Numbered from the stretch's first letter, positions 7,855-63,694 are shown. The stretch is DNA of 64,000 bases from a virus (IMGVR_UViG_2061766007_000015:1-64000), one strand, 5' to 3'. Numbers and translations: made by a program. The notes: generated from the sequence alone by a model not told the origin.

Positions 7855-8790
7855 TCATTCGCCATCATATCCACCGAAATGTTCTGAGATTTTAGTAGTA
7901 TCGCCCTTATAGAATACGAGGATATTCTGATGATGCTTGCCTATCTTTCGACTCTGGTCAAAGTACTTAGGTGCTCGGATAGGAAGACTACCAATATTAT
8001 TCTCTAGTATAATCTCATTATAATAGTATAATCCTGCCCTCTGCAAGATATTTATAGTATCAGACACAAATCCATAATATGAGCCTGTCTTCGGATTACG
8101 TATCTCTGAAACCACTATTACAAAGAATCTATTATCCTTTAAGTTATTTGCCGCAGTATTCAGACAGTGGAAATACCTATCTAAAAACTCAATGTACGTA
8201 GGCTGATTACTTAAGTCACGAGAATCCTCTGAATACTTTTCAAGATTATAATAGGGTGGACATGTAAAGACCATATCAGATGTACATTCAGGTAATACTA
8301 TACTGGAACTATCGTCACATATCCAACACACTCTATTCTTTAGTGGCTCACCCATCTCTTCCACCACTCTCGCTAACTGGTCTTCATTTGCTACAACTTG
8401 TGAATGGGATAAGTCTATGCCTACATAATCATGACCAAGTATTCCTGCTACGATTCCTCTTACACTGCCACCAGCAAAAGGGTCTAGTATCACACCGCCG
8501 GACGGGCAGAACCATCGGTACATGAGTTCGCTTAATACTGGGTCAAATGTACTTGTCCTCTCTGGTGTCTTTGCTTGCTCACCTCTAGCACTGAATGTAT
8601 TTACAGGCATGGCGTTATTTCTTTTAACGTCTCTGCCTAATGTGCTCTCTATGCCTAAACTTTCCCACATATCTTTTCTTCTCTGCCATGCCGCTGAGAT
8701 TGTATTCAGAATAGAGAACGGAGGCACTATATACTTATCCGCGAGTAGTCTTTTTGTTGTATCTGATTTTTCCATTTTGAATAAAGGCAT
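7855..8790 (-). CDS. SAM-dependent amino-(N6A/N4C) DNA methyltransferase-like protein
   Basis: ILDPFAGGSVRG SAM-binding motif and FTCPPY catalytic-like motif. Confidence 0.8.
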   Translation of the reverse strand: MPLFKMEKSDTTKRLLADKYIVPPFSILNTISAAWQRRKDMWESLGIESTLGRDVKRNNAMPVNTFSARGEQAKTPERTSTFDPVLSELMYRWFCPSGGVILDPFAGGSVRGIVAGILGHDYVGIDLSHSQVVANEDQLARVVEEMGEPLKNRVCWICDDSSSIVLPECTSDMVFTCPPYYNLEKYSEDSRDLSNQPTYIEFLDRYFHCLNTAANNLKDNRFFVIVVSEIRNPKTGSYYGFVSDTINILQRAGLYYYNEIILENNIGSLPIRAPKYFDQSRKIGKHHQNILVFYKGDTTKISEHFGGYDGE

Positions 8791-9817
8791 TTTCTATCTG
8801 TCCTTTCAATATCGAGTCTGCTATAGGATAACTGATATACTCATCCCACACATCTTGCACTGATACTTGGTATTCATCCTGCTCCCGTCGTAGTGTTTTA
8901 CCTAACACTTCAAGACAATGGATATAGTATGCATCATCGGAACTTATGAGATGTTTGTCCATGAGTGTTATACTTTCTTGGCAACACTTCCAACAGCATC
9001 CACACCGGTGCGGTAGTAGTGTTATACCGTACTTATTCTCCGTACGCTTCTTCCAATGCTCTCTGAAACGATAGGGACTTATGCACGACATTGAGGCCTG
9101 TATCAGATTCATATTTCGACCAAGCATCAAATATGTGTCGGCTTGTGTACGTAATGGTAACTGTATATGAAAATCTGGTAACATTCGCCGTACTATCTTG
9201 TCGAAAGCATGCCACATTTCAGGACTATCTCCACCGCAAACATCAAATGGCATATTTTCTAACTTGCTGTCACTAAAATTACCAAATGCAATGTTCGGTG
9301 CCACGCAACTGTGAACTGCCCAAGAAATTGCTCCCCATGCGATTATATAGTTCTTAAGAGGATGTTCTACAAAGTCGTGAGTACCTGATAACGTACACTC
9401 GTCAATCACGTAGGGCAAATTAAGTATCCTTGCAATCTCTTCAACTGCTTTATACTCATCATAATATACCTTATTTATACCATGCAAGTGGTAGAGATAT
9501 ACGTTGTAGCCCAACTCCTTGTAGTACAATGCTGTAGCAATACTATCTTTGCCGCCTGATATGCATACTACAACCTCATCCTGTCTAGGTGTATAACCTA
9601 AAGGAAATACTAACTGCTGTATGTTGCTGTCGACCATCTCTCTACGCTCATACCACGGCACTTTACAATCTAGGATATCCTGTATGTCTGCAAAACTCTT
9701 ATCATAAGGCATCTGAATTAACTTCTTTGTGTCCGCACTTGATACATAAGCATACAAGTCCAAAAGTTGTACGTACAACTTGTTGGGTATAGGATTACTT
9801 AGTGTTACTGTCTGCAT
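8735..9817 (-). CDS. QueC-like PP-loop ATPase
   Basis: SGGKDS PP-loop; C-terminal SC...CGCCWKC Zn motif; extra N-terminal region. Confidence 0.75.
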   Translation of the reverse strand: MQTVTLSNPIPNKLYVQLLDLYAYVSSADTKKLIQMPYDKSFADIQDILDCKVPWYERREMVDSNIQQLVFPLGYTPRQDEVVVCISGGKDSIATALYYKELGYNVYLYHLHGINKVYYDEYKAVEEIARILNLPYVIDECTLSGTHDFVEHPLKNYIIAWGAISWAVHSCVAPNIAFGNFSDSKLENMPFDVCGGDSPEMWHAFDKIVRRMLPDFHIQLPLRTQADTYLMLGRNMNLIQASMSCISPYRFREHWKKRTENKYGITLLPHRCGCCWKCCQESITLMDKHLISSDDAYYIHCLEVLGKTLRREQDEYQVSVQDVWDEYISYPIADSILKGQIENAFIQNGKIRYNKKTTRG

Positions 9818-9953
9818 ACTTTCTCCTAAATAAAAGGTTCTTATTGTCACGCTTAGACTTTTCTAGGCAAGTCTTTCCCATGCCTACTTTTCGATACTCG
9901 GGATTCTTTAATCTGCGACCACACCGCAGACAGTAAATATATTCTTTTTCCAT
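9795..9953 (-). CDS. Small Zn-finger protein (DUF6011-like, 52 aa)
   Basis: Hand-translated CLRCGRRLKNP...GMGKTC. Confidence 0.65.
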   Translation of the reverse strand: MEKEYIYCLRCGRRLKNPEYRKVGMGKTCLEKSKRDNKNLLFRRKYADSNTK

Positions 9954-26457: not shown

Positions 26458-26485
26458 ATTATAGCACATATTTTAAAGAAATCAA
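26458..26485 (-). promoter_or_regulatory. Class II promoter
   Basis: TTGATT-16-TATAAT with TGn. Confidence 0.7.
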
Positions 26486-26486
26486 C

Positions 26487-26513
26487 GGGAGCAACACACT
26501 ACATGTTGCTCCC
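26487..26513 (-). terminator. Terminator-like hairpin
   Basis: GGGAGCAACA/TGTTGCTCCC 10 bp. Confidence 0.6.
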
Positions 26514-26520
26514 ACATTGA

Positions 26521-27600
26521 TTATTCGTTAAACAGACCAAGCACCTGAACTGTAATGCCGTCTACAAGTTTAAGTGTATTTTCTGTACCGTACTGAATGG
26601 TTACTTCGTCTACAGAGTTAACTTTGACCTGAGTCTTGAACATCTCAACATCAATCATGCACTCAAAATTTGTTTCGCCGCCACTCATACAGTCAAGAAC
26701 CTCAGAACCAACTGATTTCTTATTTTCCATAGTAAGCGAGCCACCACCGAATGTCAACTTAATGACATTACGGTCATAATCACCGACGAATACTGAAAGT
26801 CTGTCAAGTGCCTGCAGTAACTCATTCTTCTTGACCGTACAAGTATTTGTAAACTCAGTATTCACAAGACTGGACACGAGGTCAACATCATACTCATCAG
26901 CGTTACCATCGGCTTTCGTAATAAGTCTGCAATCAGCAGTAGTAAATACCAGCTTATCATCTTCTCTTACATAGTCAATTAGGCCTTCCTGACCGTTTGG
27001 CATAAGTTCAAGTAAATCAACAGTTGCCGCACTTAACAATACTGGCTCTTCTGCGAACTTCTTGTTAATGGAACAAATCTTTTCTCCGTCTGTACTGAAA
27101 ATGCACTCGCCTGCGTAATATGATGTAAGAGCAATTACGTTAGGGTCTGTACACAGAGCCGTCTTTGCTGTAGAAATCATGGTATTAATAAGACCTACTG
27201 ATACCTTCTCAGGTGTAATGCCTTCCGGAACAGGAGGTGCAGTAAGTTTAACAAATGTGCCATCAACATCAAGCGGTAATTCAATCTTGTACTTACTCTT
27301 GCCGCCGAGTACTGTAAGACTGTCTGCTTCGATATCCAATGTGATGTTCTCGCAGGTCATCTTAGAAATCAATTTTGCAAAACTGTCGGCTAATACTACT
27401 ATGCTGAACGTGTCAGCAGTATCTACCGCTGTCGATACCTGAAAGTAGTTTGTTGTGTCTGTGGTGGTCAAAACAAGTCTTTTACCTGCTAAGTCAATTG
27501 CCATAAGACTTGTGATGGGTAAAAGTTTGTTGTTTGATGAACCCTTTACTGCTTTTGCTACGAGTTCCTGAAATTTGGTAGTGTTAATTGTGAATTGCAT
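26521..27600 (-). CDS. dnaN: DNA sliding clamp (beta subunit-like)
   Basis: About 360 aa three-domain pattern; LVLTTTDT, TDGEK, ELLQALDRL motifs; AAGGAGG SD before MQFTIN. Confidence 0.8.
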   Translation of the reverse strand: MQFTINTTKFQELVAKAVKGSSNNKLLPITSLMAIDLAGKRLVLTTTDTTNYFQVSTAVDTADTFSIVVLADSFAKLISKMTCENITLDIEADSLTVLGGKSKYKIELPLDVDGTFVKLTAPPVPEGITPEKVSVGLINTMISTAKTALCTDPNVIALTSYYAGECIFSTDGEKICSINKKFAEEPVLLSAATVDLLELMPNGQEGLIDYVREDDKLVFTTADCRLITKADGNADEYDVDLVSSLVNTEFTNTCTVKKNELLQALDRLSVFVGDYDRNVIKLTFGGGSLTMENKKSVGSEVLDCMSGGETNFECMIDVEMFKTQVKVNSVDEVTIQYGTENTLKLVDGITVQVLGLFNE

Positions 27601-28456
27601 TGTGTCCTCCTTTTGCATAGTTGCCACTTATTATTTTAGGTACTGCGTGTTCCCAATCTATTATGTGATGGTAACGCTTATTTGAAACGCCCATGGTTGC
27701 TACTTTAACACATGATGGGCAATTCATAACTGTGTAGAATGATTTAACATACGTACCGTTATCTAGATACGATTCAGTTAAACCGCCAGAAAATGCTTGT
27801 GTCGTACACTGGTCTAATGAGACATTTGCTGTAGTAAGAAATAGCTTTCCTCTACTGCCGTGCAACACATATGCGGTTGTATCTTCATTGATTCTGCCAA
27901 TGAAATCAAATGGTCTATCCGTCTTACAAAAGAACGAGTTCATGGCCTTTCGTGCAAGTTTCTTCTTCCACACATTGGAACCTTTGCCACCAATGAAATC
28001 ACCTGTTTGGGCAAATGCTACAGTATGTGCTCCTGATTTCTCAAGAAAGTTTATGTACACATCAATAATGGAATCTAAGTCTCGCACATAGATTGTACCA
28101 AACTTACCAGTCTCATCTTCATACCTGCAACGAAACTCTTGGTAATCATCATCAAGTTCCAAGAAGTAAGTTAAGCCAAGTTCTTTTGCTATTCGATGAC
28201 ACTGATTACGTGCAAACAGTACTATGTTTCTTGCGGGGTTTAAGTCGCAAGTGTCACTGGTTTTTGAGGCTTCAAGTTTATCGAACTGTATGACTTTATC
28301 GCCATACAATCTTCTGTACTCATCTTCCTGTTTGTCCTCATTGTCAATGATGATATAGTACTTTCCTGTATAACCACATTTCTTTAACGAGTCTACGGTT
28401 ACAACTCTATCTGCTCTGCCATGAGACAGAATGAATACCGCAAAATCATTTCTCAT
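27584..28456 (-). CDS. GT-A fold glycosyltransferase (TAGT/GREB1-like)
   Basis: FILSHGRAD, FLELDDDY, GRINED, HH.I.W..AVPKI. Confidence 0.75.
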   Translation of the reverse strand: MRNDFAVFILSHGRADRVVTVDSLKKCGYTGKYYIIIDNEDKQEDEYRRLYGDKVIQFDKLEASKTSDTCDLNPARNIVLFARNQCHRIAKELGLTYFLELDDDYQEFRCRYEDETGKFGTIYVRDLDSIIDVYINFLEKSGAHTVAFAQTGDFIGGKGSNVWKKKLARKAMNSFFCKTDRPFDFIGRINEDTTAYVLHGSRGKLFLTTANVSLDQCTTQAFSGGLTESYLDNGTYVKSFYTVMNCPSCVKVATMGVSNKRYHHIIDWEHAVPKIISGNYAKGGHNAIHN

Positions 28457-28842
28457 TTTGTCTTTTCCCCGCTAGTCCGCATAATCTCGTCAATGTCTTT
28501 GGACAACTGTATGTAGCCGTTTGCTATTGCATCGTCAATGTCGATAAGCACCAACGCACTCTTCTCCATTAAATTCTGCATTTCTTCCCCGGCATGCGCA
28601 TAGTAATCGGCAATCTTGGCATAATTAAATACGATATGTCTTGTTGCCGCAAGTCGTAAAAACTGCTTCTCTTTCTCCGACACATTTGAGTCATTGATTT
28701 CCTTTAACAACTGTGAATACTTACCATACTGATAAAGAGACTCAATAGGTGGTGCTACTGCACTTGGCTCATACTGCGGTATTGCTGACTTCTTGGTGTA
28801 AATGTTCTCTTTTGCAGTTTGCTTGACGTTAAATAATGCCAT
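28453..28842 (-). CDS. Small helical protein associated with phage glycosyltransferases
   Basis: YTKK..IPQYEP...FLRLAATRHIVFNY..IADYYAH; AAGGAGG SD before MALF. Confidence 0.75.
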   Translation of the reverse strand: MALFNVKQTAKENIYTKKSAIPQYEPSAVAPPIESLYQYGKYSQLLKEINDSNVSEKEKQFLRLAATRHIVFNYAKIADYYAHAGEEMQNLMEKSALVLIDIDDAIANGYIQLSKDIDEIMRTSGEKTK

Positions 28843-29662
28843 TTGTACCTCCTTTCTTATAGTGACCACTGATTATTTTGGGTGTAAAGTTCTTATATGG
28901 TATTCTTAGTTTGTCGTAATTTTGTGGTGTACCATTAGTAAGAATTACATGGTGTTCCACATACTCTAGTCTAGTTATGCCTTTGTAACAATCGCCAGTT
29001 GCCATGGGTGCTCTACAGTTCACTTGCATGCCGAATGGATATAATCCAATATTGCCACGCTTATTGTTGTCGAGAACAATAGTCATATCCTCAAGCACAC
29101 TTGCTTTATACGGGCCTATCGGCTTCTTCACATCATACACAAACATATTGCCGTAATGTGAAGCAAATTTATAGGTATCTTTATTTATGCCGATATAGTA
29201 TGATGCACTTGGTGGACCAACTATACCTACATGCTCACTGCAATTTAAGAAACGGATATAAGCATCGATTACACGCTCAAAATCAAACTTCTTTGTACTA
29301 CATATTTTATCATCTTTACTCTGCCATCTCAATTGGACGCTCTCAATATCATCAAACATAAAGCAGATGTATCTTATTCCATTTGCTTCGGCATACTCAT
29401 CGATAAATTGTCTGGCGTATGTACACACCTTATGTGTATAATTGTACGTACCAACGCTATCGACTTTATCGTAGTAATCTTCCTTCTTAAATCTGAGAAC
29501 CTTATAATCAACACCGTCCACATAATCGTACAGTTGTGGGTCATCCTCACCAACAACAACGTATATTGGATGACTCACATGATACGACCTGAGTAATTCA
29601 AGTGTTGGTATGTACTTTGCTTTACCGTAACTCGGTATAAAATATGCTACATTATCTATCAT
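28829..29662 (-). CDS. Second GT-A glycosyltransferase paralog
   Basis: FIPSYGK, MFDDI, LED, TPKII; ATGA-coupled to polA. Confidence 0.65.
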   Translation of the reverse strand: MIDNVAYFIPSYGKAKYIPTLELLRSYHVSHPIYVVVGEDDPQLYDYVDGVDYKVLRFKKEDYYDKVDSVGTYNYTHKVCTYARQFIDEYAEANGIRYICFMFDDIESVQLRWQSKDDKICSTKKFDFERVIDAYIRFLNCSEHVGIVGPPSASYYIGINKDTYKFASHYGNMFVYDVKKPIGPYKASVLEDMTIVLDNNKRGNIGLYPFGMQVNCRAPMATGDCYKGITRLEYVEHHVILTNGTPQNYDKLRIPYKNFTPKIISGHYKKGGTNGII

Positions 29663-31974
29663 ACTTTTATTGATTCTCCGTACCAAGACTTAGATACTTC
29701 TACATCACAACTGAATGGCATATGAAGTATCTTCTGTGCCGCATCACTCATTACCTGAGCAAGCAACTCTGAACATTCCTTAGCGTTTTCTTCAGGACAT
29801 TCTGCGATTACTTCATCGTGTACTGGTATAAGCAATCTAAAGCCTAACTCTTTCAGCCTTGCATTGTTATGCAAATCAATCATGGCTAACTTTGTTAAGT
29901 CTGCGGCACTACCTTGGATTCTTGCATTTACTACCTGTCTTGTTGCTTCTGCTATCTTCTTTCCGTTGTCAATTATCCAAATACCTTCTTCGTTGGCTTC
30001 TTCAAATATCCTACGTTTCTGATTGAATCGACAATTAGCAAGTTTAGCCAAATAGTATTTTTGCTTGTTCTCGGGTACAGGTGCAACTGAATCATCTGAA
30101 TCAAAGTCAAGCACATCCCAATTCACTAATGCGCTAGAGTCTGACCATTTAAACTCGTACTCGGGTAACTGCATATCTGGCAATCTTCTCTTACGTCCGC
30201 ATACAGTGGTTACATAGCCTAATGTTCTAGCCATCTCTAATGAGGTATCTTCAAATATCTTTATCTCAAGATACTTCTTATATAGGTTGGCTTTCAACTG
30301 CTTCGCTCTATCCAAAGTTATATGCATGCCATCAGCAACACTTTCATCACCACGTCCATACAAAATACCTAACAACACTGGCTTTGCATCACTTCGTCTT
30401 TGCTTGTACTCTTTAGGGTTCTTATTACCGTTCTCGTCAAACTCTCGGCACATCTCGTATGCCACTTCAAAACATGCGCTGGCTACGTGGCTGTAAATAT
30501 CATCGCCTCGTACTCTTGCTTCGTACAATGCTGTATATCCCAACTCATTACAGAATGAAGCCAAGCATGACGGCTCTTGCTGACTATAGTCCGATGACAA
30601 TAACACACATCCGTCACTTGCGGTAAACATCTGTCGAATGTCTGTAATGTGAGATGGTATGTTCTGTAAGTTAGGTTCGCTACTAGACATTCTACCTGTG
30701 TCTGCACCATACTGATTAAACTTACAATGTATTCTTCCATCATTCGGATTTACACACTCAGGTAGTTTATCAATAAACGTGCTGACTATGGTTGAGAACT
30801 CTCGATAGTCTAGTATGGCTTTCGCAACGTCGTTATCTATCGCCTTAAGACTTTCTTCGTTGGTACTTCTTGACGGCTTCTTCGTCTTTTTATCGACAGG
30901 CTGTTCACACCCTAATATATCGTAGAGTATGATTGCTAACTGTTGAGGACTCTCGATATTAATCGGGTCACTTAGTTTGCAGTCGTGCTTGTGTATGCTT
31001 TTATAACGCTCAATATCGTTGCTGTAACGCTCTAGAACACTGTAGAAAGCGTTTACACGCTCTTCTAATAGTGCATGATACTTTTCTTTTAATTTAGCGT
31101 TATATTCGAAATCAAACTTAACACCAGCGTCTTCCATATCAGCCACAACTTCAACTAGTGGCATCTCAATGTTAAAGAATACCCAAGCAAGTTTACGCAT
31201 ATCTTCTCGGTCGGAGTCTGACCTTAGATACTGACTCTGGTACAAATAGAACTCATAGGTAATTCTCGGGTCATGAGCCGCATATAAAACTGCTGTCTGT
31301 AATGGTATGAGTGTAAATGGTATGCCTTTAAACAATTCATCGAAAGTAAACGCATCTTCTTTTCCATCCAATACATACTTCTGATGTAATGGCTTCAATC
31401 TGTTCACAGGCTCGTTCTCATTCAACAACCGCTGTGCTAAATAACAATCCCACGAACAGTATATACCTTTAACACCTACCATGTTTCGCATTACTCGTAT
31501 ATCGAAATCCGCATTGAACATTACGATAAACGGCTTTGCTTCCAACATGCGCTCAAACTCTTGGCGTATCAGTTCGATTGGCAATTGTCCATCAATCTTA
31601 CTGTTAGTCATGTAACTAACATGATTGATTGGTATATACGCTTCATTCAGTCCAGGTGTGTAAATACATATACCAGCAACTGTATCAAGCAGTGGATTAA
31701 GTCCCGTTGTCTCAGTATCGATACTTACTACACCGTTCGCAATAATCTTATCAATATATTGTTTTAGGGTCTCTTCGTCCTGGATTAAAGTGCAGTTATC
31801 TCGATATTTGCCTAAGTACTTCTCAACCGTGGCTATTGCAGTCTGTACTCTGGCCATTAAACCCCCACTACCCTTGATGGTAATGGGGGCTTTGTAAGAT
31901 GCACTATTTGCTTTTTTCGCTACCGAAACATCCTGCGCCCTGCTGGGTCTACTCGGTATAGTGAAAAGTGCCAT
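29659..31974 (-). CDS. polA: Family A DNA polymerase with 3-prime-5-prime exonuclease
   Basis: IDTETTG exo I; TGRMSSSEPNLQNIP; DYSQQE; AKPVLLGILYG; PVHDE. Confidence 0.92.
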   Translation of the reverse strand: MALFTIPSRPSRAQDVSVAKKANSASYKAPITIKGSGGLMARVQTAIATVEKYLGKYRDNCTLIQDEETLKQYIDKIIANGVVSIDTETTGLNPLLDTVAGICIYTPGLNEAYIPINHVSYMTNSKIDGQLPIELIRQEFERMLEAKPFIVMFNADFDIRVMRNMVGVKGIYCSWDCYLAQRLLNENEPVNRLKPLHQKYVLDGKEDAFTFDELFKGIPFTLIPLQTAVLYAAHDPRITYEFYLYQSQYLRSDSDREDMRKLAWVFFNIEMPLVEVVADMEDAGVKFDFEYNAKLKEKYHALLEERVNAFYSVLERYSNDIERYKSIHKHDCKLSDPINIESPQQLAIILYDILGCEQPVDKKTKKPSRSTNEESLKAIDNDVAKAILDYREFSTIVSTFIDKLPECVNPNDGRIHCKFNQYGADTGRMSSSEPNLQNIPSHITDIRQMFTASDGCVLLSSDYSQQEPSCLASFCNELGYTALYEARVRGDDIYSHVASACFEVAYEMCREFDENGNKNPKEYKQRRSDAKPVLLGILYGRGDESVADGMHITLDRAKQLKANLYKKYLEIKIFEDTSLEMARTLGYVTTVCGRKRRLPDMQLPEYEFKWSDSSALVNWDVLDFDSDDSVAPVPENKQKYYLAKLANCRFNQKRRIFEEANEEGIWIIDNGKKIAEATRQVVNARIQGSAADLTKLAMIDLHNNARLKELGFRLLIPVHDEVIAECPEENAKECSELLAQVMSDAAQKILHMPFSCDVEVSKSWYGESIKV

Positions 31975-32647: not shown

Positions 32648-33385
32648 TTAGTTTTCCTCGCTTTCTTTTACAAATGATAATACTTCGATAAATGCCTCTC
32701 TATACTCTTCCAAATACTGAGTTAAGTCAGTGAAATGGATTGAATGAGACTCGGTAAAATGACCGGTGGTCTTAGCATTATGATGCTTACACTTGAACAA
32801 CTCAACGTTGTGCTGGACTGAACTTGCTAACTGCGGTAAAGTTACACAATAGACTTCCTGCTTCTTCGCTCTTGAGTACATCATAAGCATTAGTCTACCG
32901 TTAATCTTAACACCGCAAGCACACTTGTACGGGTTCTCTGCAACCTGTACTCCGAGATTACCGAATGACTCGACATACTTCATTACCTCTAAAAGTAACG
33001 AATTGTAACCATCGAGTTTTCTCTGAGAAATTGCTTTAGCCTCTTTCTCTGCGGCTTCGGCTGCCTTACGTGCTCTCTTAGCCTTACGCTCGGCTTTCTT
33101 CTCAATCTTCTCGGCCTCATCAGCAGTCAATTCCTGCTCTGTGAGTTCTACCTCTGCGTATGCTTCTTCTGCTGTCTCTTCTGGTCCATCTGTATTAACT
33201 TTTCTTAAATTGGAACGAAATGTACTGTACGTACATGTAGCCTGTAGAAAAGGCTTACCTTCGACGGGTTCAAATGCAAGAGTCTTGTATTTGGTATCCC
33301 TTGAGACTAATCTTCCAGATTTACCGTTTCGTCTATCTTCATAGACCTGGCCGATAATGCCAACTTCATCGTTTGTGCTTTTCAT
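32648..33385 (-). CDS. Hypothetical protein with charged K/E/A linker
   Basis: 245 aa, AAGGAGG SD. Confidence 0.75.
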   Translation of the reverse strand: MKSTNDEVGIIGQVYEDRRNGKSGRLVSRDTKYKTLAFEPVEGKPFLQATCTYSTFRSNLRKVNTDGPEETAEEAYAEVELTEQELTADEAEKIEKKAERKAKRARKAAEAAEKEAKAISQRKLDGYNSLLLEVMKYVESFGNLGVQVAENPYKCACGVKINGRLMLMMYSRAKKQEVYCVTLPQLASSVQHNVELFKCKHHNAKTTGHFTESHSIHFTDLTQYLEEYREAFIEVLSFVKESEEN

Positions 33386-39886: not shown

Positions 39887-40533
39887 CTTTTATCCTTCCC
39901 GTAAAACTGTATTACTTCGCTAGTATGCCAAATTCTACTTGATAATCTACTGCCCAAGGCTCGCTCTAAATCTGTCTCGCCTAAATTGCCAGTAAATATG
40001 TTTGATTTCCTTGCCAGCACTCTCTGGTCTATGTACATAAGCAACTGAGATAGGTCATAGTTACTGAGACCATTACTTCCTATATCATCCCAAACTACTA
40101 AGTCTATGTCAAGCAATTTGGATTTTAACTCTTCAAACTCAGCATCTTTATTGTTAAAGTCCTTGCACTTAAGTAGAAATGTCGGCACATGTATAAATAC
40201 TGCTCTCGCATTAAGACCGTTGCCAGCCCATATCTCGTCAAAGTACTTAAGCATCAACTTTATAGACCATGTAGTCTTACCATTACCCGTATTCGTACTG
40301 AATAGATACAAATTGTTACCATCTTCAACAAATGCTTTAATGTCCGACTTAATCTGTGCGAGTCTGCAAAAGGCTTGATAGTCGCAATCTTCGGGCACTA
40401 AAGAAATAATTCTCTGCATGCTCTTTGGTATATTACTCTGGTCGAGTAGAGATTTCATTTCAATGTATCTGACACAAGCCTCATTACAAGGTTCATTTGT
40501 GCATACATCTTTATATAAACAGTCCATATTCAC
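39883..40533 (-). CDS. dnaC: DnaC/IstB-like helicase loader ATPase
   Basis: TGNGKTT, VWDDIG, R..SRI. Confidence 0.85.
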   Translation of the reverse strand: MNMDCLYKDVCTNEPCNEACVRYIEMKSLLDQSNIPKSMQRIISLVPEDCDYQAFCRLAQIKSDIKAFVEDGNNLYLFSTNTGNGKTTWSIKLMLKYFDEIWAGNGLNARAVFIHVPTFLLKCKDFNNKDAEFEELKSKLLDIDLVVWDDIGSNGLSNYDLSQLLMYIDQRVLARKSNIFTGNLGETDLERALGSRLSSRIWHTSEVIQFYGKDKR

Positions 40534-40536
40534 CTC

Positions 40537-41295
40537 TTAAAATTCAACTTGCTTGCCTGCTTCTCGCATCTGCTCTATAAACCTGCTTTGTGCTTCTTGC
40601 TCTTCTTCTGACATAGTAGCACAAGATACATTCGCTTCACAAGCGGCTGACTTAACGTTGCTATAGGTAGAACGTGCAATAGGATAAAAACTGAGATATC
40701 CCTTATCAATACTTTGCTGTATAATCTGTAGTGCTTCGGTTTTACTCTCTGTTAGTTCTCTGAGTTTATTAAGTATGCCTCTAAACTGATTGGCATACAA
40801 TGGCTTATCTTTTATTTCAAGCCTGAAACGTAAATAGTTATCTAAGCAATCTCTTACCTCGATATCATCTGTAAACTCTTCTATAGCAGAAAAGCATTTC
40901 TGATAAAGATTAGGTTTAGATGATTTAGGCTTTTTCTCTACTAATACGATAGTATTAGTTTTATTTTCTTCTTTAATATCTTCTTTATTATTGATTAAAC
41001 TCAGTTGAATAGGGGTATTAAACTGAGTTGAATAGTATTCAACTACTTTAACATTGTTAACTAACTTTTCTTCTTTGCCAATAAGTCCTCTGTCTAAGAG
41101 ATTTTTGAGATTCTTGAGTATACCTTGTTTAGTAGCACCACACCAATCTGCGAGATACTGTAAACTGCCAGTAAATCTCTGATTTTCAGTCTGACTGTAG
41201 CCATATATTACAGCATACACTATCAAGTCATTTCCTTTAAGGTCTAATTCAGTTCTCATCCAGCCTTGTACTGTGACATAGTTTTCAGATTTCAT
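40537..41295 (-). CDS. Phage replication initiator (N-terminal wHTH)
   Basis: NYVTVQGWM..L.LKG..LIVYAVIYGYSQ; upstream of dnaC/dnaB. Confidence 0.8.
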   Translation of the reverse strand: MKSENYVTVQGWMRTELDLKGNDLIVYAVIYGYSQTENQRFTGSLQYLADWCGATKQGILKNLKNLLDRGLIGKEEKLVNNVKVVEYYSTQFNTPIQLSLINNKEDIKEENKTNTIVLVEKKPKSSKPNLYQKCFSAIEEFTDDIEVRDCLDNYLRFRLEIKDKPLYANQFRGILNKLRELTESKTEALQIIQQSIDKGYLSFYPIARSTYSNVKSAACEANVSCATMSEEEQEAQSRFIEQMREAGKQVEF

Positions 41296-42438: not shown

Positions 42439-42993
42439 TTAATTATATTTGAAAATCATATTATTATACGATTTACAATTACCTTTACAAATTGCCGAGA
42501 TTTTTCCATGAGGAACTTTCGTTGCTCGTTCAGCGGCCATTGTTGATTCAAATTCTCCAATAAATTCTCCATTAACTTTATAAGCCTTAACAATTTTACC
42601 TTGCTTTTTTAAAATTGAAGCACGTATACGTTCCTTAGTTCGGTCAGGACAACCTCGTCTTGAGTTCGCCAAACGAATTTTATCTGGTCTACTTCCATAT
42701 GTATTGTTGTACAACGCTGTACACCACTCCAAATTAGTCACATTATTGTTGTCCTTATGCTCATCTTTATGATTAACCTGTGGTAAATTATTAGGATTTG
42801 GTATAAATGCTTGGGCTACAAGACGATGTACTCTAAACTGAATATGTTTTCCAGAGGTACTTCTGAGTGCAACAACTTTATATCCATTTACATTACTTTG
42901 TTTGAGTTCCTTACTGTCTCGATATACTCTACCAAAATTAGATATATAATATTGATACATAAATCCGGTTATAGGCATAAGTGTTTCTTGCAT
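42439..42993 (-). CDS. Free-standing HNH endonuclease (NUMOD4-HNH-NUMOD1 type)
   Basis: YYISNFGRV, VHRLVAQAFIPNP...VNHKDE.K.NN...NLEW; C-terminal GEFES...A. Confidence 0.85.
   Translation of the reverse strand: MQETLMPITGFMYQYYISNFGRVYRDSKELKQSNVNGYKVVALRSTSGKHIQFRVHRLVAQAFIPNPNNLPQVNHKDEHKDNNNVTNLEWCTALYNNTYGSRPDKIRLANSRRGCPDRTKERIRASILKKQGKIVKAYKVNGEFIGEFESTMAAERATKVPHGKISAICKGNCKSYNNMIFKYN
42463..42490 (-). promoter_or_regulatory. Promoter inside HNH 3-prime end
   Basis: TTGTAA-16-TATAAT. Confidence 0.5.
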
Positions 42994-43003
42994 CAGTATC
43001 TCC

Positions 43004-44740
43004 TTATGATAATAAAAATTGTAATAATTCATCTTTATTGCCGACAATTTGTCCATCAACTACTGCATCTGAGATAGCACCTTTCTTCTGCACTAATTCC
43101 CAAACTCTTTCATCAATAGTATTTTTTGTTAACAAGTTATATATTGTAATTTTATTCGTCTGACCTATTCTGTGACAGCGGTCTACAGCCTGGTCATATA
43201 GTGCTCTGTTCCACGGGTGGTCAAGAAAAATCATAATAGTGCCTGCTGTAAGTGTGAGACCAGTACCCATAGCACCGATAGTACCTATAAGTACATCTAT
43301 TCCATTGTATTTTCTGCTATGTAACGCCGCATTACTTTCAGTATCTTGGAATTGAAATACTACTTCCTGTCTTTCTGAGTCTTTTGTATTTCCTGTAATT
43401 TGGCCTACTTTGTACTTCTTATGTAGTCTCTCAAACACCACATCTGTTATCTGTGTCCAGTTAGAGAAGATAACTACTTTTTTACCATTACTAACTGCTT
43501 CTTCTACAAGTTCTTCCATGCGGTCAAGTTTTGCTGACTCTTTAATCATGCTTGAGAGAATACCTGTATAGCCTGTAGCCTGTCTCATTCGGATTAACTC
43601 TGCTAAGGGATTACTTGCATTTTTAACCTGGTCAATATTGGCCTTAATGTCTGTCGTAATCTCTTTGTATATCTGAGCCTGCTTGGCTGTCATCTCAACA
43701 TATTCATCTACGTACAACTTCTCAGGTAAATCTAATACTTCTGATTTAAGTCTACGTAACATAATCTCATTTAGTCTTTCCTGTAACTCATCAAGATATC
43801 TATAACCGACAACTTCATAGCCACCAAAACCACCCATGACACAATAATGATTTCGGAAAGAATAGAAAGCATGTTTCTCATAGCCTAACCATTTAAGTAT
43901 CATGTATAAGTCTAAAGGCTGATTCATAATAGGTGTACCAGTCATAGCAATCATTGTCTCTGCCTGCACCTTCAATATGCCTTTACCTTGCTGACTTGTG
44001 TGGTCTTTCGCTTTATGACACTCATCAAACGCTATCATGTTGATATCGCCTGACTGCGTTAATTTGACGATTTCAGCGACTATTTTTTCGTCTCTGAAAG
44101 TTTCTACGTTAGTTATGATAAAGTACTCTTGGTGAGCGTCCAGGAGCGTCCTATCGCTATGTCTGAGTTGCAGTACATCTTCTAATTTATCTTTATTGCC
44201 GCCTACAACTAATCGACCGTCTCTTCTGACTCTCTGACCAAGTATTCGGCACTGCTCATCTGAGTGAGTTTCAATCTCATTCTTCCAGTTCCACTTAAGA
44301 CCATTAACACCGCAAATGATAAGACAATGCTTATATCCTAAAGTACGTTTCTTATCCACTGCAATATCAATAATCTGCTTGGTCTTACCTAAGCCCTGCT
44401 CATCTGCAAGTAACCACTTATCGTGATTAAGTCCATATAAGACACCTGCAATCTGATGTTTGAATGGCTTAGTCTTGAACTTAAAGCCGTCAGGAAGTTC
44501 AGTAAGTTCTTCCTTTTCTGCAACATAACCATTGATAGTGAAATCGAAATCAGTCAATCTCTCAGTAATATAACCTAACTTCTTAACAGGTATTTCCCAT
44601 TCTTTTGTATTTACATTATAAGAACGCTCTGACAGTTCTTTAATAGTATCCACTATCTTGCTGTTATAATCGAATGATACAAATAATGAGTATTCATAGT
44701 TAGTTAATTTCTGAGACTTTTGAATATTTATAGTTATCAT
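43004..44740 (-). CDS. SNF2-family helicase
   Basis: LADEQGLGKT, FDECHK, MTGTP, QAVDRCHRIGQ; AAGGAG SD before MITINI. Confidence 0.9.
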   Translation of the reverse strand: MITINIQKSQKLTNYEYSLFVSFDYNSKIVDTIKELSERSYNVNTKEWEIPVKKLGYITERLTDFDFTINGYVAEKEELTELPDGFKFKTKPFKHQIAGVLYGLNHDKWLLADEQGLGKTKQIIDIAVDKKRTLGYKHCLIICGVNGLKWNWKNEIETHSDEQCRILGQRVRRDGRLVVGGNKDKLEDVLQLRHSDRTLLDAHQEYFIITNVETFRDEKIVAEIVKLTQSGDINMIAFDECHKAKDHTSQQGKGILKVQAETMIAMTGTPIMNQPLDLYMILKWLGYEKHAFYSFRNHYCVMGGFGGYEVVGYRYLDELQERLNEIMLRRLKSEVLDLPEKLYVDEYVEMTAKQAQIYKEITTDIKANIDQVKNASNPLAELIRMRQATGYTGILSSMIKESAKLDRMEELVEEAVSNGKKVVIFSNWTQITDVVFERLHKKYKVGQITGNTKDSERQEVVFQFQDTESNAALHSRKYNGIDVLIGTIGAMGTGLTLTAGTIMIFLDHPWNRALYDQAVDRCHRIGQTNKITIYNLLTKNTIDERVWELVQKKGAISDAVVDGQIVGNKDELLQFLLS

Positions 44741-44771
44741 TGTTACTCCTTTCGTCTCTACTTCTATAAAC

Positions 44772-44800
44772 ATTATACAACATAATTCTTGCGTTGTCAA
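44772..44800 (-). promoter_or_regulatory. Class II promoter (consensus)
   Basis: TTGACA-17-TATAAT. Confidence 0.9.
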
Positions 44801-62808: not shown

Positions 62809-63243
62809 TCATTCTCCTTTGTAAATGTGGTCTAGAATTATGTTTGAGATTTCCTTAAATACTTCGTCATCATAACTAATGTCGTAAGCGTAGGTGTAAT
62901 TATACATGCTGTATTGGCCGTAATCTCGGTCGTATTCGTCTATAGGTGAGATTGTAATACCTTCTGGACCTATCGAACTATATGCGTAATGAGTTTTACC
63001 TGTACGTTGACTAGTATACGCTTTACCATTTACGCCATTACCGCCGTGTCTAACTGCTTCTAACGACGCTTTTGTAGCACCAGTATCAGGACCCTTCGGC
63101 TCTAAAAACGTTTTAGAATCAGCAACATCTCGGTAGATTGCGAGTCGTATCTCAGGGTCTTGCGTTGAAGCGTATATACCCTTTTTTGTTCTTCGTAGGG
63201 TATTTACAAAATCACGAAAGTCTAAATGAACTCTGCTTCCCAT
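62809..63243 (-). CDS. Tail completion / neck protein
   Basis: Position; P..TGA..AS motif. Confidence 0.6.
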   Translation of the reverse strand: MGSRVHLDFRDFVNTLRRTKKGIYASTQDPEIRLAIYRDVADSKTFLEPKGPDTGATKASLEAVRHGGNGVNGKAYTSQRTGKTHYAYSSIGPEGITISPIDEYDRDYGQYSMYNYTYAYDISYDDEVFKEISNIILDHIYKGE

Positions 63244-63244
63244 A

Positions 63245-63694
63245 CTACTCACCTTCTACGTAATAATGCTCATTACATCTTCCACCACCGACATTTATTA
63301 CGAATTTGGATACTACTAAGCATCCGTCTAAACCTTTGTATTTCTTTAATAAATCGTTTGACCTGTAGCCTTGTGAATACTCGTTTATCTCATCTAAGGA
63401 TTCACCTTTGACAATTATATCACCCTTGGTTAGGGTGAAGTGCTCTGCTTTGGCTTCATTAGAAAGTTCTATCCATTCGCTTCTTGTAAGAAATGCTGAG
63501 TCTTTGCGGATACGACAAATAATGTCATTTGTGCCAACAACTACGTTGTTAACCGCAATTTTATTACCAGTATCTTTCCAAAAAGCATTGTGGATAACAT
63601 GCCTAAACCATGTAACCAATTGGGTTGTAGGGTCTGTATACTTATTGTACACAGTAAGAGTTTCGTTCCACCAAGATGCATAAAAGTTAGCCAT
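63245..63694 (-). CDS. Head closure protein
   Basis: TLTVYNK, TKGDIIVKG, HYYVEG. Confidence 0.65.
   Translation of the reverse strand: MANFYASWWNETLTVYNKYTDPTTQLVTWFRHVIHNAFWKDTGNKIAVNNVVVGTNDIICRIRKDSAFLTRSEWIELSNEAKAEHFTLTKGDIIVKGESLDEINEYSQGYRSNDLLKKYKGLDGCLVVSKFVINVGGGRCNEHYYVEGE

Follow-up and report, generated by a model that had tools for sequence, protein, structure and literature searches.

The analysed stretch of DNA, called here the window, comprises the first 64 kb (64,000 nucleotides) of the genome of a rumen phage (IMGVR_UViG_2061766007_000015), and the subject of this work is a group of three genes located between those of a family A DNA polymerase (polA) and a DnaN-like sliding clamp. 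Two of them encode glycosyltransferases (GTs) of the TAGT family, GT1 and GT2, while the one in the middle encodes a small protein, MID, homologous to the C-terminal half of ParB-like proteins. These genes are interpreted, with a probability of about 0.6, as a post-replicative DNA glycosylation cassette within the replication operon. The genome is complete, with 73,635 bp and a 50-bp overlap of its ends (CheckV: 100% complete, direct terminal repeats), and no close DNA relatives of the phage were found in the phage collection searched. The minus strand carries nearly all the genes of the window, including the five of the operon. The features concerned are the following, the interval between polA and the clamp gene being referred to as the slot:

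29659..31974, minus strand: polA, family A DNA polymerase with a 3′-5′ exonuclease domain (PF00476, E = 2.9e-89; PF01612, E = 6.8e-13), upstream boundary of the slot.
28829..29662, minus strand: GT2, TAGT-family GT-A glycosyltransferase, 277 amino acids (aa) from its ATG (PF20691, E = 9.3e-14, 52.3 bits).
28453..28842, minus strand: MID, stand-alone ParB C-terminal half, 129 aa from its ATG (homology to GT-linked ParB-like proteins; phrog_620, positions 148-215 of 217).
27584..28456, minus strand: GT1, core TAGT-family GT-A glycosyltransferase, 290 aa (PF20691, E = 3.5e-32, 112.5 bits; phrog_842, E = 1e-64).
26521..27600 (alternative end 27627), minus strand: DnaN-like sliding clamp (PF00712, E = 1.8e-9; phrog_947, E = 2.7e-29), downstream boundary of the slot.
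26485..26515, minus strand: terminator-like hairpin, 14-bp stem followed by a T run, located after the clamp gene and closing the operon.

The four junctions from polA to the clamp gene are all overlapping. Those of polA/GT2 and MID/GT1 are formed by ATGA, in the first case with the TGA stop of polA over the ATG of GT2, while GT2/MID and GT1/clamp overlap by 14 nt and 17 nt, respectively, the clamp ATG being at 27600. The open reading frame (ORF) of GT2 extends to 29686 if a TTG start is taken. The KGG codons that end each GT double as the AAAGGAGG ribosome-binding site for the next gene. Both GTs score above the curated cut-off of PF20691 (27.5 bits), and they are paralogues of each other, with 23% identity (E = 3e-18). 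A preliminary description, made from the window alone, had recognized two GT-A proteins with DDD/DDI motifs and PKII ends, flanking a protein of about 130 aa and coupled to polA; in view of the PF20691 matches, the paralogy and the overlapping junctions, this observation was right throughout.

The two enzymes share the C-terminal end PKIISG.Y.KGG and display the motifs LDDDY (GT1) and FDDIE (GT2). The published R...DDD...ED[Y/F] pattern is present in GT1 as HGR, LDDD and NED; its counterpart in GT2 is YGK, FDD and LED, with K replacing R, and K22, D112-D113 and E199-D200 are invariant inside the GT2 family. The AlphaFold2 model of GT1, with a predicted local distance difference test score (pLDDT) of 92.5 and a predicted template modelling score of 0.90, indicates a GT-A fold. 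Its top match among solved structures was TarP (E = 7e-6), AvpGT with Ara-A, a solved nucleoside glycosyltransferase, was also among the fold matches, and the top viral matches were TAGT proteins, including a T4-like beta-glucosyl-HMC alpha-glucosyltransferase (E = 2e-8, template modelling score 0.65). GT1 gave tblastn matches in 36 phage records, and its homologues in Nocardia phage NTR1, Lactobacillus phage phi jlb1 and halovirus HHTV-2 share 39–49% identity with it. GT2 is lineage-restricted: about 30 relatives, every one annotated as TAGT, were found in a large protein set, tblastn gave no match among 50,697 phage records, and a GT2-only peptide-pattern search found nothing. The characterized members of the TAGT family put sugar on DNA-linked acceptors (PMC13390438; bioRxiv 10.1101/2023.12.21.572611), and from family membership the same type of sugar transfer is predicted for GT1 and GT2. 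A longer variant of GT1, of 463 aa, was observed in another locus (L048:6345-7736), 3′ of a full ParB plus MID protein, with an extra N-terminal region of 185 aa without Pfam match.

Concerning MID, the preliminary description had taken it for a helical partner. The AlphaFold2 model (pLDDT 84.9, about 98 over residues 30–80) is indeed helical, but the relationship to ParB had gone unrecognized. MID is 36–44% identical to the C-terminal half of the ParB-like proteins encoded 5′ of GT1 homologues, whose N-terminal half is absent from MID. In these GT-linked proteins, the half missing from MID is a domain with the CTPase fold of ParB/Noc/Spo0J (E = 1.5e-11 versus solved structures). A gene annotated as 'ParB-like' overlaps the 5′ end of the GT1 homologue in Lactobacillus phages phi jlb1, c5 and phiLdb, in Rac-like E. 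coli phages and in halovirus HHTV-2, and in Nocardia phage NTR1 an unannotated protein, encoded in the same overlapping position, aligns as ParB-like. In the bacterial phages, the ParB-like/GT pair lies just 5′ of the terminase gene. A full HMMER search yielded 1190 cluster representatives with a MID domain, most of them of 240–290 aa with MID at the C-terminus, the stand-alone forms being a minority. No natural MID-GT fusions were seen among the best 150 of these 1190 representatives.

MID itself matched no Pfam family and gave no ParB_N match. Its structure search gave nothing in Foldseek at E ≤ 0.001 and a top Z of 4.1 in VIA-align, with no convincing fold match from Foldseek on PDB, VIA-align wide or ESM Atlas. 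Conservation is concentrated in two regions. The poorly ordered N-terminus carries the motif Y15-[TS]16-x-K18...P22-x-Y24...P31, with Y15, P22 and Y24 conserved in 98–100%, and in the core R68, Y81, Q89, E93 and D101 are invariant and H69 is present in 97%. An 'xLF' sequence at the N-terminus of the stand-alone MID was considered as a clamp-binding motif, an idea abandoned when its alignment counterpart in the fused forms turned out to be the GF motif closing the ParB N-domain region.

The distribution of the two halves of the ParB-like proteins is informative as to the part played by each. ParB-like proteins are also encoded 5′ of TET/JBP (phage Cooper) or DpdA (phage Rosebush), and what they have in common with the GT-linked ones is the N-domain, MID being absent; therefore, MID is the GT-specific part. 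From these comparisons, the ParB N-domain appears to be a general module on the side of the DNA, with MID as the side specific for the GT. With TAGT, DpdA and TET/JBP as neighbours, the ParB-like partners thus go with three classes of DNA-modifying enzymes. In these two mycobacteriophages, gene 1 codes for the ParB N-domain protein and lies directly 5′ of that of the DpdA-like (Rosebush, L100:1-1946) or TET/JBP-like protein (Cooper, L101/L102:1-1753).

At least 567 viral stretches encode MID, and the pairing of MID with a GT was studied in the neighbourhoods of the best 80. A TAGT gene was directly 3′ of that of the MID protein for 65 of the 80 MID proteins. Among the remaining 15, the TAGT was behind inserted genes in 10, directly upstream in 2, and one or two short ORFs off in 2. 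The genes inserted in those 10 cases, of donor-making or tailoring type, encode a His-phosphatase/cytidylyltransferase fusion, a CofD-like protein plus a MobA-like NTP-transferase, or a radical SAM protein. An N-terminal ParB domain was present on 49 of the 80 MID proteins, and two or three TAGT paralogues surrounded one core GT1-like enzyme in 16 of 76 loci. The usual order in the lineage of the phage is polA-MID2-GT2-MID1-GT1-clamp, which from gene order reads as a duplicated two-gene cassette. In one relative (L009) the two cassettes are swapped and each MID is still 5′ of its own GT, an arrangement expected of cognate pairs, as MID and GT appear to be. MID2 was lost in the present phage and in two relatives. 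In a close relative, a UDP-galactopyranose mutase gene (E = 1e-62) comes right after a diverged GT1, and the presence of this and other donor-making genes indicates a true nucleotide-sugar chemistry with changing donors. When four complete, unrelated genomes were compared (this phage, phi jlb1, NTR1 and HHTV-2), the only families common to at least three of them were the ParB/MID protein and the GT. As nothing else is common to these viruses of bacteria and archaea, the module is self-contained and mobile, and its substrate must be present in any cell. A further conserved protein of about 400 aa (390–417 aa; L114:5925-7136 and nine other loci), without Pfam or PHROG match, is encoded between polA and MID, often beside a cytidylyltransferase-like or radical SAM gene, as an extra component of the cassette.

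Independent information came from the content of the slot in relatives. Out of 80 loci retrieved via polA, the complete polA-clamp interval was visible in 44, which were distributed in the following classes, with membership assigned mostly by BLAST clustering and one or two members per class checked with profiles:

22 of 44: MID/TAGT cassettes.
14 of 44: DpdA homologue (phrog_887, E = 1e-47 and 9e-42), accompanied in 11 by a YhhQ-type preQ0 transporter and in 3 by QueC, QueD, QueE and FolE.
6 of 44: C5-cytosine DNA methyltransferase (PF00145, E = 7e-63), accompanied in one by an N6/N4 methylase.
1 of 44: N6/N4 methylase alone.
1 of 44: small unknown gene.

The classes were unmixed in all 44 relatives. 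Moreover, 11 complete or near-complete genomes contained one system each genome-wide: MID plus TAGT in 6, DpdA plus YhhQ in 3, and C5 methyltransferases in 2. As the classes are exclusive, the slot is a swappable DNA-modification island, and as the cassette occupies the place of proven DNA-modifying families, its position argues that it modifies DNA. The hypermodification of DNA put forward in the preliminary description, which had suggested a gene-neighbourhood analysis, thus receives strong positional support from the DpdA and methyltransferase genes of the relatives; the link that it had drawn to a QueC-like/methyltransferase pair is dealt with below.

Two other observations were made in the course of this survey. 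Some sister phages (L113:8306-11446; L123, L126, L130, L142, L179) have a four-gene slot, which encodes an unknown protein of about 150 aa, a GT-B-like glycosyltransferase (about 338–368 aa, with weak matches to PF00534 and phrog_2170), DpdA and a YhhQ-type transporter; a glycosyltransferase next to DpdA hints at a glycosylated 7-deazaguanine. Islands of 500–900 bp free of GG/CC were also found at positions 71163-72212 of the present genome (beyond the window), and in relatives G062 (40327-41244) and G057 (63065-63575). A link between these islands and the cassette was considered and discarded, because two of six MID/TAGT genomes and one of three DpdA genomes have islands of at least 500 bp. 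A search with the island protein sequence gave no match in 25 relatives.

In the mechanism that we propose, GT1 would be the core enzyme of a mobile two-gene module, composed of a ParB-like or ParB-tail adaptor and a TAGT, and would move a sugar from a host nucleotide-sugar to the phage DNA. MID, probably as a dimer, would be its cognate adaptor, binding the GT and keeping it on DNA or at the replisome, and would stand in for the full ParB clamp of other phages. GT2 would be a diverged paralogue arisen by duplication of the whole MID plus GT cassette, its own MID copy having been lost here, and could add a second sugar or act at other sites. The synthesis of a disaccharide in two steps is possible; the occurrence of one MID per GT in most relatives is about equally compatible with a sequential pair and with two enzymes directed to DNA in parallel. 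The purpose would likely be to shield the phage DNA from restriction, as is done from the slot of sister phages by DpdA/7-deazaguanine genes or DNA methyltransferases.

Several points weigh against DNA glycosylation by this cassette. MID is not basic and shows no recognizable DNA-binding fold, and the clamp N-domain of ParB is absent from MID and from the rest of the genome, so the supply of such a domain in trans was discarded. TarP, which has a related fold, glycosylates teichoic acid and not DNA. The GT1 homologue of Lactobacillus phage phiLdb is split (L018:848-1713; ORFs 848-1354 and 1351-1713), probably as a pseudogene produced by a frameshift, so this phage can do without the module. 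To our knowledge, no glycosyltransferase acts on unmodified DNA, and no enzyme making 5-hydroxymethylcytosine (5hmC), 5-hydroxymethyluracil (5hmU) or 5-hydroxycytosine was found in the complete genome by six-frame searches for TET/JBP and ThyA and by Pfam scans. The latter were run with hmmscan on nearly all ORFs of at least 60 aa, that is, all of them except a few short ones and six large ones of the structural region. They gave no dioxygenase, hydroxymethylase, DpdA, radical SAM protein or kinase of the thymidine-hypermodification type, no GT-B and no nucleotide-metabolism genes, and the six-frame search gave no match to PF00303 (dCMP-hydroxymethylase type). So, the absence of a TET or hydroxymethylase, noted earlier for the window, extends to the whole 73,635-bp genome. 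TET/JBP and ThyA are also absent from five other complete or near-complete records bearing the pair, and in a set of 50 MID-bearing viral records, including 26 with a completeness of 90% or more, TET/JBP was found in none and ThyA in none above the cut-off. The positive control for TET/JBP was gp2 of phage Cooper (E = 4e-8), Rosebush being unsuitable since it contains DpdA instead.

Two candidate acceptor makers of the present genome were considered and rejected. One was the pair, at positions 7855-9850 of the minus strand, formed by a QueC-like PP-loop ATPase gene (weak TtuA/QueC/TilS-like N-terminal matches) and an overlapping N6/N4 DNA methylase gene, which the preliminary description had offered as a possible source of the acceptor base. 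This proposal did not hold, because the pair is found in only one of five complete or near-complete cassette-bearing relatives (both genes in G008, neither in the other four); it is also absent from the unrelated ParB-GT phages of the four-genome comparison. The PP-loop/methylase pair travels together, independently of the GT cassette. The other was an unannotated ORF of 245 aa (32648-33385), considered as a divergent oxygenase, which is charged and, judging from its sequence, looks helical and unlike an oxygenase.

With DNA as the target, the acceptor could be of two kinds. MID-partnered TAGTs might glycosylate DNA without prior hydroxylation, at the exocyclic N or O of a canonical base, at the backbone or at the ends, with the ParB-tail adaptor giving access to DNA or to the base. 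This is a tentative proposal, which we consider unlikely as it stands. If it were true, glycosylation of unhydroxylated DNA would constitute a novel class of DNA modification, and a mobile two-gene cassette would have carried it among viruses of bacteria and archaea. The more conventional possibility, which we regard as improbable, is that the enzymes follow the classical TAGT chemistry and act on 5-hydroxymethyl-pyrimidines, or on a first sugar linked to them, the precursor coming from an unrecognized phage or host enzyme. All the characterized TAGTs require an acceptor hydroxyl group, located either on a modified base or on its sugar (PMC13390438; bioRxiv 10.1101/2023.12.21.572611), thousands of 5mYOX-profile matches lack a Pfam TET/JBP annotation (PNAS 2026, PMC13229309), the genome contains many small unannotated ORFs, and a radical SAM gene adjoins the GT in some MID/TAGT loci. 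However, the present genome is without radical SAM gene, no third gene family is common to the four complete pair-bearing genomes, and a 38-kb temperate phage has only the pair, just before terS. In addition, the lack of TET/JBP and ThyA in the 50 MID-bearing records is to be compared with mined phage GT contigs, where 5mYOX or ThyS adjoins about 35% of the matches, GT-A and GT-B pooled (bioRxiv 10.1101/2023.12.21.572611).

The second alternative, also to be viewed with considerable doubt, is that the substrate is a protein and not DNA: MID/ParB itself at the conserved Y-[TS]...Y motif, a virion protein, or a conserved host protein. The near-invariant Tyr, Thr/Ser and Pro residues of the poorly ordered MID N-terminus make this motif the obvious candidate, and ParB/MID is the sole other protein common to all carriers. 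In animals, O-GlcNAcylation of a protein is reported for the TAGT-like GREB1, and virion glycosylation occurs in some mycobacteriophages. On the contrary, the slot alternates with DNA-modifying systems only, most MID partners are fused to the DNA-clamp domain of ParB, and the gene is in a replication operon and not in a structural one.

It is very unlikely that the cassette acts, in the manner of TarP, on a polymer of the cell envelope or on a lipid-linked glycan, thereby blocking superinfection or altering a receptor. TarP, a prophage GlcNAc transferase of wall teichoic acid, was indeed the top solved match, accessory genes of variant loci (cytidylyltransferase, Glf, CofD-like) are also found in glycopolymer synthesis, and many carriers are temperate phages. 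But the pair is found in viruses whose hosts (E. coli, Lactobacillus, Nocardia, Vibrio and Haloarcula) have no envelope polymer in common, and TarP is also the top PDB match of proven DNA GT-A enzymes (bioRxiv 10.1101/2023.12.21.572611). The ParB-derived partner, the polA-clamp location, and the equivalence of the slot to that of DpdA or methyltransferase genes point in the same direction. Finally, a soluble nucleotide or signalling molecule as the target, for instance to disarm a host defence signal, can be practically dismissed: AvpGT with Ara-A appears among the fold matches and nucleotides are bound by ParB N-domains (PMC12704722), but there is no defence-related context, and the conserved tandem adaptor/GT pairs and their swap with DNA-modifying genes would be left unexplained.

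Returning to DNA glycosylation as the preferred interpretation, its interest goes beyond this phage. Of the phage GTs mined with DNA-glycosyltransferase profiles, about two thirds are without an adjacent base-hydroxylating enzyme, and these were left out of consideration as 'less likely' DNA modifiers (bioRxiv 10.1101/2023.12.21.572611). The MID/TAGT loci constitute a large coherent subset of such orphan GTs, with at least 567 viral contigs, 1190 protein clusters and an adaptor domain of their own, and the orphan-GT problem becomes directly testable with two or three small genes. If the DNA is modified, there is either a hidden acceptor-making route or a direct glycosylation of ordinary DNA, which bears on phage-defence arms races and on enzymatic DNA labelling. 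If it is not modified, a ParB-derived adaptor serves a non-DNA glycosylation.

Away from the cassette, two observations concern possible mobile elements. A gene of the HNH/NUMOD homing-endonuclease-like type (42439-43059, minus strand) lies directly 3′ of a SNF2 helicase gene (43004-44800), with a slight overlap. In three relatives (L184, L185 and L187), polA appears as two ORFs with a third one, about 250 aa long (BLAST cluster 13), between them, which suggests an intron or an insertion of the homing-endonuclease type.

Among known systems, the closest one described is that of the ParB-dependent thymine dioxygenases 5mYOX176/ParB176 (O'Toole et al., PNAS 2026, PMC13229309). As in the loci studied here, a ParB-like protein is encoded directly 5′ of a DNA-modifying enzyme, of which it is, in that case, a cognate and fairly specific partner. 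The 5mYOX-partner ParBs are without classical DNA-binding domain, and GTs and terminase genes are frequent among their neighbours (PMC13229309). The differences are that the partner is here a glycosyltransferase, that there is no 5mYOX, that the ParB N-domain is missing in this phage, and that the C-terminal domain is the GT-specific MID, absent from the TET/JBP-adjacent ParB-like protein of Cooper.

The GTs themselves resemble the phage GT-A enzymes associated with 5mYOX/TET, as well as the kinetoplastid JGT, in family (PF20691), in GT-A fold as modelled, and in having TarP as the nearest solved structure (Burke et al. 2021, PMC8256090; bioRxiv 10.1101/2023.12.21.572611). The 5mYOX/TET-associated enzymes and GT1 share the R...DDD...ED pattern, and multi-GT clusters with donor-making genes are frequent in both. 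In contrast, the 5mYOX/TET-associated enzymes use 5hmC or 5hmU produced by an adjacent C5-methyltransferase/5mYOX or by a ThyA homologue, neither of which occurs here or in the 50 MID-bearing records, and the dedicated MID adaptor belongs to the present clade. The beta-glucosyl-HMC alpha-glucosyltransferase of phages T2/T6 is a TAGT that adds a second glucose to glucosyl-5hmC, and it is a precedent for a sequential pathway with two GTs. Unlike the present case, it needs 5hmC made before replication by dCMP hydroxymethylase, and a first GT of the GT-B type, both absent here, and it has no ParB-type partner. The 7-deazaguanine system of phages (DpdA with preQ0 genes or YhhQ) and the methyltransferases are of unrelated chemistry; their occupation of the identical slot, mutually exclusive with MID/TAGT, implies an equivalent role.

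In our literature search, no description was found of a ParB- or MID-partnered TAGT without a hydroxylase, and the presence of ParB, clamp or polymerase genes near mined GTs was mentioned briefly (bioRxiv 10.1101/2023.12.21.572611; PMC8256090). With respect to these precedents, what is new in this work is the duplication of cognate cassettes, as read from gene order, the recognition of MID as the GT-specific part of the ParB-like partners, and the evidence provided by the modification slot.

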